DNA of 64,000 nucleotides from a virus. Its lineage: Duplodnaviria > Heunggongvirae > Uroviricota > Caudoviricetes. Where the stretch lies: IMG/VR virus record IMGVR_UViG_2671180724_000008. One strand, given 5' to 3'. The notes beneath the pieces are model-generated. The model worked only from the letters and a program-made list of their open reading frames with translations. It was not told the DNA's origin and made no database searches. Positions 10,264-64,000 of the stretch are shown here, piece after piece. Made by a program: the position numbers and the translations under genes. Position 1 is the first letter of the stretch. Every line of letters starts with the position of its first letter.

Positions 10264-10339
10264 GATGGTGTAGCTCAGCGGTAGAGCAGTTGGCTGTTAA
10301 CCAACTGGTCGGTGGTTCGAATCCACCCACCATCGCCAA
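10264..10339 (+). tRNA. tRNA-Asn (anticodon GUU)
   Basis: Cloverleaf by hand: acceptor GATGGTG/CACCATC, anticodon stem GTTGG/CCAAC with loop CTGTTAA, T-arm GGTGG-TTCGAAT-CCACC, 3' CCA. Confidence 0.8.
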
Positions 10340-10343
10340 TTTA

Positions 10344-10430
10344 GGGGAGTTAGTCCGTAGAGGTAGCGGTGTAGACTGTAAATCTACTGTCATTGCGACT
10401 CGGGTGGTTCGACTCCATCACTCCCCACCA
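10344..10430 (+). tRNA. tRNA-Tyr (anticodon GUA), long variable arm
   Basis: Acceptor GGGGAGT/ACTCCCC, anticodon stem GTAGA/TCTAC with loop CTGTAAA, T-loop TTCGACT, 3' CCA. Confidence 0.7.
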
Positions 10431-10434
10431 AATT

Positions 10435-10510
10435 GCCGGTTTAGCTCAGTTGGTAGAGCGCCTGCCTTGTAAGCAGGATGTCAGCGGTTCGTGTCCGTTA
10501 ACCGGCACCA
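10435..10510 (+). tRNA. tRNA-Thr (anticodon UGU)
   Basis: Acceptor GCCGGTT/AACCGGC, D-arm GCTC-AGTTGGTA-GAGC, anticodon loop CTTGTAA, T-arm AGCGG-TTCGTGT-CCGTT, 3' CCA. Confidence 0.8.
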
Positions 10511-59656: not shown

Positions 59657-60240
59657 TTGAAATAACAAAAGAAGAACTAACACAGGCAACAAAGGAGTAC
59701 GGGAAAAAGCACATCGCGCATCGTATGGCGAATGTGTTACTGGCCTTGTCTGAACAAAAGCCATCTGCGTTTGTAATGAAAGATGATTTGGCCGATCCGG
59801 CAATTGTTTCGACTCCGGCATATTTAGATATTGAGGATGCGGAACAAAAAACGATTGGGGATATTGTCGCGCTTTATGCCGATCCCTTTCCTGTCATCGG
59901 TGACACTACTGCTCTTGTGGACGATATTTTAAACATTCTCGCGCTTCTTGAGGCTGGCGATTGGTCAGAACATTGCACTAAAACGGAGTTAGGCGGTCGG
60001 CTTGAAAGAGAGATTACACAACTTATTGGTGATGCCCAAAATGATTTGTCACCTGAGCATCTCCCCTGCGATGTAGTCCTTGTGCCAGGGATGAGGATAC
60101 ACGAAGGCGTCAGAACGAAAACATTATTAACCGCATTACAGAGAAGAGCCGAACTAAGCTCGCGGATAAAGTTGATGCCATCCAAAATATTTGATGTCGT
60201 CAAATTTACGCCATCACAACATACTGAGAGAGATAAATGA
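59653..60240 (+). CDS. Hypothetical protein, possibly a distant third paralog
   Basis: N-terminal IEITKEELTQA weakly resembles members A and B. Confidence 0.45.
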   Translation: MIEITKEELTQATKEYGKKHIAHRMANVLLALSEQKPSAFVMKDDLADPAIVSTPAYLDIEDAEQKTIGDIVALYADPFPVIGDTTALVDDILNILALLEAGDWSEHCTKTELGGRLEREITQLIGDAQNDLSPEHLPCDVVLVPGMRIHEGVRTKTLLTALQRRAELSSRIKLMPSKIFDVVKFTPSQHTERDK

Positions 60241-60863
60241 GCACGGTAGCGAAAGATCTCACAGAAGATATTCTCAATGAAATTATTGCTGGTGCGAATA
60301 CCTCGCTTGAGCAACTTCTTGCGTTAGCACTGAGAGCCGAACGTCGAGACAGAAATCGTTTTTATGAGCGATTACCAGGGAAACGACCAGATAGATCAGA
60401 TGAAGATGGTTGCGATATAGACTACATGGAGCCTTCAGAGATTTATCAACTTGGTAAAGATGACGGCTGGAACGCTTATCACGATGCTGTGATGAAGTTG
60501 GATGAAAAAGTTAAACCTCTTTCTCGACCGGTAGATCACGGTTTCCGCGATAACTGCGAATGCTCTAGTTGCCAGACCACGGCCCGTATTTGTTCCGAAT
60601 TGACAGATAAATCCAGCCTAATCTACGAAGTTAATGTAGGCGGTAATACATGGGTCGAATGCACAAGAGCTGCATACGTAAGAGCAAAAGACAAGGGTGA
60701 ATTAACCAGAGTTGTTGCCCATCACCCAAATAATGAGCTTAAAGATCACCAAATTCGAGAACTGGTGAACGAGTTGAGGGATATTGCGGTTCAGTACCAC
60801 GGAACGCAGCAATTGCGGGAGAAGATTGCCAGAGCAGTGAACAACTCAGTCCGTAAAAAATAA
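60237..60863 (+). CDS. Hypothetical protein
   Basis: 208-aa ORF; last phage-like gene before the non-coding junction region. Confidence 0.45.
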   Translation: MSTVAKDLTEDILNEIIAGANTSLEQLLALALRAERRDRNRFYERLPGKRPDRSDEDGCDIDYMEPSEIYQLGKDDGWNAYHDAVMKLDEKVKPLSRPVDHGFRDNCECSSCQTTARICSELTDKSSLIYEVNVGGNTWVECTRAAYVRAKDKGELTRVVAHHPNNELKDHQIRELVNELRDIAVQYHGTQQLREKIARAVNNSVRKK

Positions 60864-61076
60864 GCAATAGTACGATAAAGAGGCCCCATGCTCTTGATGG
60901 GGCCTGTAGCAACTAGCGTTATGGACGCTGGTTTACGTACTCAATGATCGCTTTGATAATCGCGAACATCGGCGGCACGATTTTGAACAGTAAGTTAACC
61001 ATAACAGGCCTCACTTAGTTTTATCGCGCCTAGCTGCAAATACCTTTGGGCTTGCCTTTGCAGTTGCAATATCTGT

Positions 61077-61096
61077 AGTCGCCAGATACTTACGGC
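61077..61096. repeat. 20-bp direct repeat AGTCGCCAGATACTTACGGC (copy 1)
   Basis: 19/20 identical copy at 61250-61269; each copy next to a short hairpin. Confidence 0.6.
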
Positions 61097-61249
61097 ACGA
61101 TTTCGAGTTAAGGTAAGGTTTTAGAGTCACCAAAAACCTGGACTTAAATCTTCTTTGAGAACAACGATGTTTAGTAAATGGTCATTATTACCTGGTATGA
61201 CCACTCAACGTTTCTTGATGAATCCAGTACATTCGGTTAATCTTAATTC

Positions 61250-61269
61250 AGTCGCCAGATACTTATGGC
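61250..61269. repeat. 20-bp direct repeat AGTCGCCAGATACTTATGGC (copy 2)
   Basis: See copy 1. Confidence 0.6.
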
Positions 61270-61302
61270 TCAGGAACAGAGCCGCAAACTCTGTTTCCTT
61301 TT

Positions 61303-61333
61303 AAAAAGCCCAGCCTAGTCAACTGGGCTTTTT
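61303..61333. terminator. Bidirectional rho-independent terminator (AAAAAGCCCAG ... CTGGGCTTTTT)
   Basis: 8-bp GC stem flanked by A-run and T-run. Confidence 0.75.
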
Positions 61334-61631
61334 AATGTCTATTTTTAACCCAATGAACCTTCAATACCGCAACATCAGTGTCTTGCGAATTAAGATAGTG
61401 TGTATAGGTTATACATGCAAGTGCATAACTCTGTGGATAACTCAGGAAGGAAAAAGTAGCTTCCGCGCAATTTAGGCCAGACAAGGCTTTCGCAAAAATC
61501 AACGGAGAGAAAAAAATTTGTTAAAAATAACGTTTGTTGGAATTGTATATATTTATGCCTTTCAATAGTTAGCATCTTATTAACATCTTTTTTAAGAGAT
61601 AGAGTTCAAAAATATATAGCTTCAACATATA

Positions 61632-61647
61632 CTGTATGCATATACAG
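61632..61647. promoter_or_regulatory. LexA (SOS) box CTGTATGCATATACAG upstream of the UmuD'-like gene
   Basis: Perfect CTGT-N8-ACAG within TACTGTATGCATATACAGTA, about 20 bp upstream of ATG 61666. Confidence 0.8.
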
Positions 61648-61665
61648 TATTAAGAGGCGAGTATT

Positions 61666-62055
61666 ATGGGCTTCCCTTCTCCTGCGGCGGATTATGCTGA
61701 GAGCCGTATTTCTCTTGATCAGCAGATAATTAGACATCCTTCAGCGACCTACTTCTTGAGGGCAGCTGATAGCCATCATCGTGAGGGAATATTGCAGGGT
61801 GCATTGCTGGTGGTCGATTCCTCACTCACTCCTGTTGATGGATCTCTTCTTGTATGTGCTCTGGATGGGGAATATCGCGTAAAAAGATACCGGAAGTATC
61901 CACGTCAGCATCTGGAGGATTTAAGAACTGGTAAGAAGGAAGCATTGCCAAAGGATGATGATGGATGCACGGGCAGCAATGCCGTGTTTGGTGTGATCAC
62001 TCACATTATCAACGACGCAAGAAGTGGCGAGTTTGATGATTGTCCTGTGATGTAG
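61666..62055 (+). CDS. UmuD'-like protein: UmuD homolog encoded without the N-terminal pro-peptide, starting at the residues that follow the UmuD self-cleavage site
   Basis: Begins MGFPSPAADY, colinear with UmuD after Cys24-Gly25; retains DS and VKR catalytic-region residues; comparable to P1 HumD as recalled. Confidence 0.8.
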   Translation: MGFPSPAADYAESRISLDQQIIRHPSATYFLRAADSHHREGILQGALLVVDSSLTPVDGSLLVCALDGEYRVKRYRKYPRQHLEDLRTGKKEALPKDDDGCTGSNAVFGVITHIINDARSGEFDDCPVM

Positions 62056-62092: not shown

Positions 62093-63193
62093 TCACACTG
62101 CGCGGAATGCGATTTCGCCAGGTATTACTTCACCTTGCCAATACATTTGGGCAGCAACGCGATCTGCGAGGTCACGATAAATAGCCGTAAATTCGCTATC
62201 TGGACGACTAATAACGGTTGGTGTTCCGTTATCCAGATCCTCACGAAGAGAGATATGAAGTGGCATTTGGCCTAACAACTGCGTGTTGTATTTCTCGGCC
62301 AGTTTCTGTGCGCCACCGGTGCCAAAAATTGGCTCGTGATGACCGCAGTTACTGCAAATATGCACACTCATGTTTTCGACGATACCTAGTACCGGCACTT
62401 CGACTTTTTCGAACATCACAATGCCTTTCTTCGCATCGATCAGCGCGATGTCTTGCGGCGTAGTTACCACAACCGCACCAGTTACAGGAATGTTCTGCGC
62501 CAGCGTCAATTGAATATCACCAGTGCCCGGCGGCATATCGAGAACGAGATAGTCCAGATCAGGCCACAGTGTTTCCTGCAACATCTGCATCAGCGCCTTG
62601 CTGGCCATCGGTCCACGCCACACCATTGCATTGTCGTCGGTGACCAGATAACCAATAGAGTTGGTTGCCAGGCCATGAGACATGATAGGTGCCATGTGAG
62701 TACCGTCCGGTGAGGTTGGACGTTGGTTTTCCGCACCCAGCATGGTTGGAATTGATGGACCGTAGATATCGGCATCCAAAATACCAACTTTCGCACCTTC
62801 AGCAGCCAACGCCAGTGCCAAGTTTACTGCTGTGGACGATTTGCCTACACCGCCCTTGCCTGAGCTGACGGCGATGATGTTCTTAACGCCATTAATGCCT
62901 GGTTGGTTTTTGACGCGCTTAAGCGTGGCAATGTTGTACGACAGCTTCCAGTCGATAGCCTTTGCGCCAGTGATACGGAGCAGATCACCACTACATTGCT
63001 CTTTCAGGTCTTCAAAAGGCTTATTCCACACGAAAGGCATGATTAGTTCGACATGCAGTGTGTCATCCATCAACGCAACATGGTGTAACGCTTTAAGCGT
63101 AGTCAGGTTGTGCTTCAGGGTTGGGTGCTGAAAATTAGCCAGCGTACCGGCTACCATTGCTCTCAGGGCATCCGGCGATTTGGACTCGCTCAT
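62093..63193 (-). CDS. apbC: Fe-S cluster carrier ATPase Mrp/ApbC (host chromosomal)
   Basis: Near-identical over most of its length to enterobacterial Mrp as recalled (SGKGGVGKSSTAVNLA, CxxC motif); divergent from metG as in E. coli. Confidence 0.95.
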   Translation of the reverse strand: MSESKSPDALRAMVAGTLANFQHPTLKHNLTTLKALHHVALMDDTLHVELIMPFVWNKPFEDLKEQCSGDLLRITGAKAIDWKLSYNIATLKRVKNQPGINGVKNIIAVSSGKGGVGKSSTAVNLALALAAEGAKVGILDADIYGPSIPTMLGAENQRPTSPDGTHMAPIMSHGLATNSIGYLVTDDNAMVWRGPMASKALMQMLQETLWPDLDYLVLDMPPGTGDIQLTLAQNIPVTGAVVVTTPQDIALIDAKKGIVMFEKVEVPVLGIVENMSVHICSNCGHHEPIFGTGGAQKLAEKYNTQLLGQMPLHISLREDLDNGTPTVISRPDSEFTAIYRDLADRVAAQMYWQGEVIPGEIAFRAV

Positions 63194-63350
63194 CCCGTCT
63201 CCTTTATTTTAATTTGCGCAATTGTCGCCTTGTAGTGTACTCCAGCTACGACATTTAATCATTTATGAGAAATGCTGTTATCACATGGCAGACATAAGGC
63301 CATTTTGTTACTATCAAGCCCCTTTTCACTACAAAGAAGTAATGCCTACT

Positions 63351-64000
63351 ATGACCCAAGTCGCGAAGAAAATTCTGGTGACGTGCGCGCTGCCGTACGC
63401 TAACGGCTCAATCCACCTCGGCCATATGCTGGAGCACATCCAGGCTGATGTCTGGGTTCGTTACCAGCGAATGCGCGGCCACGAGGTTAATTTCATCTGT
63501 GCCGACGATGCCCACGGTACGCCGATCATGCTGAAAGCACAGCAGCTTGGTATCACACCGGAACAGATGATTGGCGAAATGAGCCAGGAACACCAGACTG
63601 ATTTCGCAGGCTTTAACATCAGCTATGACAACTATCACTCGACGCACAGCGAAGAGAACCGCCAGCTGTCTGAGCTTATCTATACTCGCCTGAAAGAGAA
63701 CGGTTTTATTAAAAACCGCACTATCTCTCAGTTGTACGACCCGGAAAAAGGCATGTTCCTGCCGGATCGTTTTGTGAAAGGCACCTGTCCGAAATGTAAA
63801 GCGCCAGATCAATACGGCGATAACTGTGAAGTTTGCGGCGCGACCTACAGCCCGACTGAACTGATTGAGCCGAAATCGGTAGTTTCTGGCGCTACGCCGG
63901 TAATGCGTGATTCTGAACACTTCTTCTTTGATCTGCCCTCTTTCAGCGAAATGTTGCAGGCATGGACCCGCAGCGGTGCGTTGCAGGAGCAGGTGGCAAA
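63351..64000 (+). CDS. metG: Methionyl-tRNA synthetase, 5' partial (runs off window end)
   Basis: N-terminus [35 protein letters not shown] with HIGH-type motif and zinc knuckle CPKC...CEVC, matching E. coli MetG. Confidence 0.95.

Follow-up and report, generated by a model that had tools for sequence, protein, structure and literature searches.

A predicted type I toxin-antitoxin module with a divergently encoded antitoxin RNA on a Cyrano/pLF82-type phage-plasmid of Escherichia coli

The toxin-antitoxin (TA) systems of type I that are closest to the locus described here are dinQ-agrAB, carried by the chromosome of Escherichia coli K-12 (Weel-Sneve 2013, PMC3567139; Kristiansen 2016, PMC5066626), and dqlB-agrB of plasmid pOXA-48, an experimentally validated addiction module hosted by conjugative IncL/M, IncI1 and IncX plasmids (PMC12365149). 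The dql genes were themselves defined by the striking nucleotide similarity of their toxin 5' untranslated region (UTR) to that of dinQ (PMC5066626). A further point of comparison is offered by zorO-orzO of E. coli O157:H7 (PMC5397157). In this report, we analyze a 64,000-nucleotide stretch of viral DNA (IMG/VR record IMGVR_UViG_2671180724_000008; hereafter the window, in whose coordinates all positions are given) that belongs to a phage-plasmid. Our main finding is that its interval 60876-61336, judged from the sequence, probably constitutes a type I TA module, in which a trans-acting antitoxin RNA is encoded divergently beside the toxin gene. The parts of the module are as follows.

61250-61335, plus strand: predicted antitoxin small RNA (sRNA) of about 86 nucleotides, with a seed (61250-61269), a stem-loop (61272-61299) and a terminator (61301-61335)
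61215-61243, plus strand: putative sRNA promoter, with -35 box TTGATG (61215-61220), a 17-bp spacer and -10 box TAATCT (61238-61243)
61116-61141, minus strand: predicted 5'-terminal stem-loop of the toxin mRNA, CCAGGUUUUUGG...AAACCUU, with A-U to G-C covariation in the consensus fold
61093-61106, minus strand: copy of the CGGCACGATTT motif in the UTR, which supplies one side of a long-range, conserved stem and overlaps the 5' edge of the sRNA target
61077-61096, minus strand: predicted sRNA target (repeat copy 1), which ends 75 nucleotides upstream of the AUG and lies partly in the hairpin 61069-61089
61034-61063, minus strand: invariant hairpin CUGCAAA...UUUGCAG, the most conserved block of the module and the source of our search pattern
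61023-61030, minus strand: UTR element GGCGCGAU, partner of the UTR motif copy and possibly also of the copy in the open reading frame (ORF)
60973-60986, minus strand: ORF copy of the CGGCACGATTT motif, encoding K-I-V-P-P, which could pair with GGCGCGAU in the clade of the window and would then enclose the Shine-Dalgarno (SD) sequence and the AUG
60919-61002, minus strand: putative toxin ORF, translated as 27 amino acids plus stop, MVNLLFKIVPPMFAIIKAIIEYVNQRP, with an ORF in every related locus
60881-60905, minus strand: toxin mRNA terminator, stem AGGCCCCAT/ATGGGGCCT and a U-rich tail, found by the terminator scan on that strand only

The two genes are adjacent, divergent and non-overlapping, each transcript has one terminator, and, with an sRNA gene next to the gene whose 5' UTR its product can pair with, the DNA carries a direct repeat. 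K-12 dinQ-agrAB has the same order and strands: a terminator, a 27-amino-acid hydrophobic ORF, a 5' UTR that is long and structured, and an sRNA of about 85 nucleotides, divergent and without overlap, whose 5' end repeats the UTR target. The target lies 77 nucleotides from the start codon in dinQ and 75 here. The sRNAs share a shape (5' tail, one hairpin, terminator) and a loop motif, AGAGCC.C.AACUC, and sRNA models of the two systems match each other both ways. The mRNA 5' ends are also similar, the block AAGTCCAGGTT..GGTG of the module resembling the same position in dinQ and dqlB. On the other hand, K-12 has two sRNAs, agrA and agrB, each starting at a repeat, where the module has one, and complementarity spans about 33 nucleotides in K-12, compared to 20 here and up to about 27 in relatives. 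Moreover, dinQ-agrAB is chromosomal, whereas the module resides on phage-plasmids and prophages, and dinQ, like tisB, is of the LexA-controlled type, whereas the toxin promoter of the module is without a LexA box. SOS control of the dinQ/tisB kind was considered and discarded: the only CTGT-N8-ACAG site (at most one mismatch) between 60000 and 62000 is at 61632-61647, before the neighboring gene humD. The dqlB-agrB pair resembles the module in being plasmid-borne, unannotated until recently, and identical in layout. DqlB starts with MINLL, compared to MVNLL here, but is 31 amino acids long and a member of NF041473; its complementarity covers 35 nucleotides instead of 20, and its hosts are conjugative plasmids rather than phage-plasmids. 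As for zorO-orzO and tisB-istR-1, they share with the module a divergent trans-acting sRNA, an 18 to 20 nucleotide pairing far upstream in a long toxin 5' UTR, and a small hydrophobic toxin of 27 to 29 amino acids; no sequence similarity of peptide or UTR to these two systems was detected.

Searches at the sequence level gave a similar picture. Neither the NCBIfam model for DinQ (NF041472) nor that for DqlB (NF041473) matched the window peptide, in 27- or 31-amino-acid form, or either of the peptide types of its relatives at E <= 10, while the positive controls DinQ and DqlB scored 54 and 73.5 bits. An hhalign comparison of the peptide with DqlB reached a probability of only 7.9%. A profile of 17 modules found nothing in the K-12 dinQ-agr locus with nhmmer, even with filters off, and sensitive blastn against that locus found only a 15-nucleotide match, in the sRNA loop; given these two results, sequence-level homology of the toxin mRNA with dinQ was dropped. 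With MAFFT, the resemblance to dinQ was confined to about 25 nucleotides at the mRNA 5' end. Since the peptide fails the DinQ and DqlB models, the module profile is silent in K-12 and the Rfam score given below is under threshold, the module would appear to work like dinQ/agrB and zorO/orzO without being a detectable member of those families.

The direct repeat had been pointed out in an earlier note on this DNA, as two copies at 61077-61096 and 61250-61269 that match at 19 of 20 positions; they are present as described. That note had proposed to search for the repeat elsewhere in the genome, and this search, run in the window with up to three mismatches, returned these two copies only, against 0.00 expected (100 shuffles). 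It had also seen a related motif near 60973 and 61092, which is CGGCACGATTT[T/C]GA at 60973-60986 and 61093-61106 (13 of 14 positions match). The hairpins it had listed are real as well: that at 60878-60903, with an intrinsic terminator score on the minus strand only; that at 61303-61333, a perfect 13-nucleotide inverted repeat (61301-61313 and 61323-61335) with a T run; and a short one beside each repeat copy (61069-61089 and 61116-61141 in the toxin 5' UTR, 61272-61299 in the sRNA). Repeats and hairpins are thus real and not due to chance. The other eight short direct repeats listed for the region, and most of its 16 inverted repeats, are at chance level and not conserved. Among the origins that the note had entertained, small RNA genes find support, as 61250-61335 has the anatomy of an sRNA, with a fold z-score of -5.6 and conserved -35 and -10 boxes. 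Taken together, the UTR fold and the module parts account for every feature that it had listed.

Related loci were collected for comparison. In a distant BLAST against plasmids, those of Citrobacter and Enterobacter yielded copies that are 68-83% identical, and a pattern built on the UTR block retrieved 37 further loci, in Citrobacter, Kluyvera, IMG/VR viral contigs and a metagenome-assembled contig labelled Bacillota (L009). After deduplication, the collection comprised 31 distinct modules, 17 distinct sRNAs and 8 distinct repeat pairs, from plasmids and prophages. When the 8 distinct target/seed pairs were written as mRNA:sRNA duplexes, 152 of 152 cells were standard pairs. Two-sided changes occur in 9 of the 19 pairs, a number reached by none of 500 shuffles. 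Concerted changes include TCG to CTG in two loci (L006 and L008), CCAG to CCGG in L007, CTTA versus CATT, and a 7-nucleotide block replaced in L011 and L041 (GTGTTTT for GATACAT in L011, in both copies); L011 also has a different 3' arm in its target hairpin, CAGUG, which matches the replaced target block. All seven one-sided differences are C/T or A/G and yield G·U pairs only with a minus-strand mRNA and a plus-strand sRNA, so that the direction of the wobble fixes the strands of both RNAs. The predicted energy of the target:sRNA duplex is -38.5 kcal/mol. This pattern argues that selection preserves the antisense pairing of the sRNA with the toxin mRNA.

The same data bear on a very different proposal, that the repeats are binding sites for a protein (P1-type parS boxB TCGCCA with ATTTC-like boxA, iterons or operators) and not RNA partners. 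TCGCCA does occur in both repeat copies and CACGATTTC follows copy 1, an arrangement which, compared by eye only, we take to resemble the right arm of P1 parS; moreover, the Citrobacter plasmid loci are 0.6-1.6 kb from repA. We nevertheless consider this proposal very improbable. Only two copies exist, in direct orientation and 173 bp apart, and one of them falls exactly on the 5' end of a hairpin RNA that carries a terminator. A DNA site would not require one-sided differences to be all wobble-compatible in one strand sense. In L011, moreover, the hairpin arm matches the block replaced in both copies. In the phage-plasmid Cyrano, about 59 kb separate parA (29.3 kb) from the module (88.5 kb), and the module is also found in integrated prophages, which need no partition site.

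The antitoxin end of the module is further characterized by its fold and its putative promoter. The 5' seed of the sRNA, which is repeat copy 2, is single-stranded, and the consensus structure consists of two hairpins with compensatory changes in 6 of 23 pairs. Upstream, TTGA[AT]G-N17-TAA[GT][CA]T is present in 17 of 17 distinct sequences, although it scores below the threshold of a simple promoter scan. A covariance model, R1, built from the 17 distinct sRNAs, gives 98 bits on the window sRNA; outside the window, and leaving aside a match to the terminator read in reverse, it scores highest on K-12 agrB (21.5 bits) and agrA (21.1 bits), at their annotated coordinates, and it also picks the validated agrB of pOXA-48 (24.1 bits).

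On the opposite strand, the toxin ORF starts with an ATG at 61002-61000, preceded at 6 nucleotides by a GAGG SD sequence (61012-61009). The interval had been described as lacking credible ORFs; indeed, it contains no long one, yet the peptide encoded by this 27-codon ORF of the minus strand (61002-60919) is retained in loci that have diverged. A small ORF is found in 31 of 31 distinct modules, and the 13 distinct nucleotide versions of the window-type ORF differ chiefly at codon position 3 (substitutions at positions 1/2/3, window against relatives: 1/1/9 for L010, 2/1/10 for L035, 1/1/6 for L026). From its presence in all loci and this third-position excess, it follows that the ORF is coding and under purifying selection. 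The hydrophobic core of the peptide has a grand average of hydropathy (GRAVY) of 1.72, compared to 1.71 for DinQ; that of the whole peptide is 0.86, compared to 1.6-1.8 for DinQ and DqlB, with K7, P10-P11, K17 and E21 among its residues. A second peptide type, for example MFLLLLKLAHPVAVIIMTLLEYWKDR, can be aligned with that of the window (type A) and has K7, P11 and I15 in common with it. Four distinct modules (L005, L006, L008 and L024) carry both types one after the other, downstream of a shared UTR; each tandem paralogous ORF has its own SD sequence, with MQMLLLFLKLAHPVAVIIMTLLGYWKDR first and MVSLLLKILPPLVAIITTIIDYINKR second in L005. Two loci otherwise closely related to the window module, L015 and L019, have a GTG toxin start instead of ATG. 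A plus-strand ORF of 49 amino acids (61155-61304) was rejected: it lies in the most variable, indel-rich part of the family alignment.

The predicted toxin mRNA is about 265 nucleotides long, from about 61141 to the terminator at 60905-60881, with a structured 5' UTR of about 140 nucleotides; we infer that transcription starts near 61141. The terminator stem has 9 pairs followed by CTTTATCGTA, and a GC-rich hairpin with a T run is present at this position in all related loci. The 7 pairs of the hairpin 61034-61063 show no variation in 17 distinct UTRs, an invariance that is partly by construction, as the pattern that retrieved every locus beyond the first four was built on it. In the target hairpin, GUAUCUG-GCGACUA-CAGAUAU (61069-61089), the start of the target is displayed in the loop, GGCGACUA, which is complementary to the sRNA 5' end. 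An outer stem, in which UCGUGCC of the UTR motif copy pairs with GGCGCGA shortly before the SD sequence, is kept in 14-17 of 17 sequences, with one-sided changes only. The two GGCACGATTT copies could act as alternative partners of GGCGCGAU, the sRNA flipping the UTR into a form that closes the SD sequence. Two pairings fit such a switch, that of the UTR copy in the consensus fold and that of the ORF copy in the minimum-energy fold of the window and in the type-A consensus; for the latter, no compensatory change is seen, and only the clade of the window, L005 and L024 exceed shuffled controls. A dinQ-style switch between mutually exclusive structures is plausible but unproven.

Several points weigh against the reading of 60876-61336 as a type I TA module. 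Both transcripts and their ends are predicted; the sRNA -10 hexamer agrees with the consensus at only 3 of 6 positions, and no toxin promoter was confidently identified at about 61142-61185. The best Rfam match in the region at relaxed thresholds, AgrB (RF02891; full length, 61255-61336, plus strand, E = 0.01-0.03), reaches 27.6 bits where the gathering threshold is 40 bits, and it rests largely on the terminator and one hairpin loop. The AgrB model is itself narrow, as the validated agrB of pOXA-48 fails E < 1. Furthermore, the sRNA of a relative, L004, has as its best Rfam match OrzO-P (RF02083, gathering threshold 60 bits), at 26.4 bits, and not AgrB; the resemblance would therefore be to a class of antitoxin RNAs rather than to AgrB specifically. 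OrzO-P is not listed for the window at E <= 10. When the target is blocked in silico, the predicted accessibility of the SD sequence is unchanged, so that simple folding does not explain repression. As for the repeats, gene conversion can also keep direct copies identical, and only the wobble asymmetry, which may stem from as few as four independent events, argues specifically for RNA pairing; gene conversion alone, however, would not impose that asymmetry. Finally, scans of the peptide against Pfam, NCBIfam and PHROGs gave no family match, whereas DinQ and DqlB matched theirs, and a Pro-Pro pair in mid-peptide is unusual for a single transmembrane helix. Start sites, toxicity (from size, hydrophobicity and context only), mode of repression and role, whether addiction or phage defence, are all inferred.

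Toxicity being the issue, the pair might instead consist of a gene for a small membrane protein and its sRNA regulator, with a non-toxic role such as modulation of a membrane protein or of lysis timing. All of the structural evidence would fit such a pair equally well, and the peptide, besides matching no toxin family, is less uniformly hydrophobic than DinQ and DqlB. Against this, the architecture matches that of the validated toxins dinQ, dqlB and zorO, the cassette is self-contained and moves among plasmids and prophages, often near replication or other TA genes, and some loci have tandem paralogous ORFs under one UTR. A mobile cassette, a validated-toxin architecture and tandem paralogues are typical of addiction modules, and we consider a non-toxic pair unlikely.

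We next place the module in its genomic setting, the elements of which are as follows.

60237-60863: left neighbor gene, encoding a hypothetical protein within a block of ea-like genes
60848-61619, no strand: mosaic cassette with the module, between the end (60847) and the restart (61620) of homology to phage PhiR41_1
61605-61649, plus strand: humD promoter, TTCAAA-17-TATACT, with LexA box TACTGTATGCATATACAGTA (61630-61649), belonging to humD and outside the toxin module
61666-62055: humD, a P1 homologue, to the right of the module
62093-63193, minus strand: apbC/mrp-like gene, to the right of humD

The earlier note had located the interval between a phage-like module and host genes and had raised the possibility of an element boundary or att-site remnant, and neither view held. 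The two flanks are parts of a single phage-plasmid. Over 1.3 kb surrounding the locus, identity is 100% with plasmid pPSUO78_2 of E. coli and 98.5% with Cyrano (pLF82), a phage that is itself an SSU5-like phage-plasmid (PMC9928086); the window is a Cyrano/pLF82-type (SSU5-like) E. coli phage-plasmid. The genes humD, apbC/mrp-like and metG are all annotated as Cyrano's own, and the module is flanked on both sides by phage-plasmid DNA in more than 100 records. As the right-hand 'host genes' are thus carried by the phage-plasmid itself, the locus lies within it, and not at an element/host junction or att remnant. In PhiR41_1, the same flanks enclose a different 852-bp insert, with a 174-amino-acid ORF, in place of 60848-61619; the module is absent from this otherwise collinear phage, which carries no repeat copy. 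The module therefore rides on a replaceable mosaic cassette.

This replacement of the cassette, together with the host-like apbC/mrp-like and metG genes after humD, is what could be said for the repeats being a target-site duplication that arose when a mobile element inserted where phage DNA meets that of the host. Besides the phage-plasmid flanks, however, the repeats (61077 and 61250) are inside the cassette and not at its ends (60848 and 61619), and between them are only 153 bp of promoter-like DNA, without a mobile element. At an empty site, a single copy would be expected, and PhiR41_1, which lacks the cassette, carries none. The pair is also conserved, with co-varying copies and the same spacing of about 173 bp, in unrelated contexts: on Citrobacter plasmids, where repA is adjacent, and in prophages, with a cytosine methylase on one side and humD/dinI on the other. 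Of all the explanations weighed here, this one strikes us as the least credible, and the type I TA reading is retained.

The module indeed moves as one unit, among E. coli phage-plasmids, Citrobacter and Enterobacter plasmids (by repA) and prophages. Among 5426 complete genomes of E. coli, 115 (about 2%) carry it, with 106 of 116 copies on plasmids. The other 10 are on chromosome records of about 4.7-5.2 Mb (for example, NZ_CP071954.1 and NZ_CP190018.1), which suggests that Cyrano-like phage-plasmids are occasionally integrated, or assembled, into the chromosome. SOS-related accessory genes recurrently adjoin the module (humD in the window), though the toxin is without a LexA box: in two prophage contigs, L012 and L016, humD-like (MGFPSPAKDYAE...), dinI-like and lexA-like genes are about 0.6-2 kb to its right, and L012 has a C5 cytosine methyltransferase gene upstream. 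In 12 loci other than the window, from plasmids and prophages (L004, L005, L007, L008, L010, L011, L012, L024-L026, L034 and L035), a conserved block of about 110 non-coding nucleotides, CTATATGGTGAGTATTCTAGTAGGGATTCTTTTCAGTACAAGAGTTGATTTTGAGGTTAAATTGAGGTTG (3320-3440 in L004), comes after the module, in most cases preceded by a palindrome of 14-16 bp, such as CACTACATGTAGTG. The block has no Rfam match and is not present in the window.

To the right of the module in the window, about 80 bp (from 61337) carry no assignment; a stretch shared with phage P7 follows, and then the humD promoter. The shared stretch, 61416-61667, is 82% identical to P7 91683-91917, where overlapping 'Upf' ORFs are annotated, followed by IS903 at the place of humD. 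Homology of the window to P1 begins only at the LexA box (about 61629), and the homologous P1 stretch has an annotated LexA site. The P7-shared stretch holds a perfect DnaA box at 61432-61440, TGTGGATAA, which reads TTATCCACA on the other strand, and an imperfect copy at 61420-61428, AGTGCATAA. Beyond the sRNA terminator, L026 and L035 have the string AACTCTGTGGATAA, and L010 and L025 the box TGTGGATAA, in all four loci 27-37 nucleotides downstream; a DnaA box thus seems to be a recurrent neighbor on this side of the module. Farther right, the apbC/mrp-like gene and metG are divergent (62093-64000), as are CYRAN_99 and CYRAN_100 of Cyrano. This order is presumably that of the E. coli chromosome, in which case capture of a host segment would be suggested. 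Elsewhere in the window, three consecutive tRNA genes (10264-10507) have Cyrano counterparts annotated as Asn, Thr and Ser.

The module could act as follows. The unpaired 5' end of the sRNA (AGUCGCCAGAUACUUAUGGC) would pair with 20 nucleotides of the toxin 5' UTR, and the 5' tail of the sRNA would probably touch the target hairpin first at its loop, GGCGACUA. The resulting duplex (about -38 kcal/mol) would act on translation indirectly: it would cover a standby or UTR-remodelling site, expose the mRNA to RNase III cleavage, or both. Such occlusion or cleavage has been documented for AgrB, OrzO and IstR-1. Should the sRNA decay faster than the mRNA, toxin synthesis would be released in cells cured of the phage-plasmid, which would then be killed or arrested. 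By analogy, a role in the killing of plasmid-free segregants, as for dqlB-agrB, is likely.

No description of the locus was encountered. Exact look-up of the peptide in protein collections returned only unnamed or 'hypothetical' entries, nothing is annotated under these 461 bp (60876-61336) in the 116 RefSeq records with the module, and the peptide string was not found in the literature searched. Judged by titles and abstracts, none of the papers found to mention phage-plasmids together with type I TA appears to describe it, and the Cyrano re-annotation lists type II toxins only. We lean, if only modestly, towards a composite view in which the module represents a distinct, so far undescribed family of type I TA systems, with toxins of 25-28 amino acids in which K7 and P11 are conserved (Pro-Pro at 10-11 in the type A of the window), an AgrB/OrzO-like sRNA, and two paralogous peptide types, sometimes in tandem under one UTR; the cassette would circulate among temperate phages and phage-plasmids of Enterobacteriaceae and serve SSU5-like elements as an addiction, possibly anti-phage, module beside those of type II.

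The locus illustrates a gap in annotation, being a familiar kind of plasmid and prophage 'addiction' cassette that appears here in no database annotation. The natural variants of its pairing region would provide ready-made compensatory mutants for studies of sRNA specificity. Stable maintenance of Cyrano/pLF82-type elements has been attributed to the type II systems KacT, RelE and HicAB (PMC9928086). If our reading is true, an RNA-controlled toxin would be a further determinant of their maintenance or defence, and one that matters for curing these elements, whose carriers include the Crohn's-associated strain LF82.

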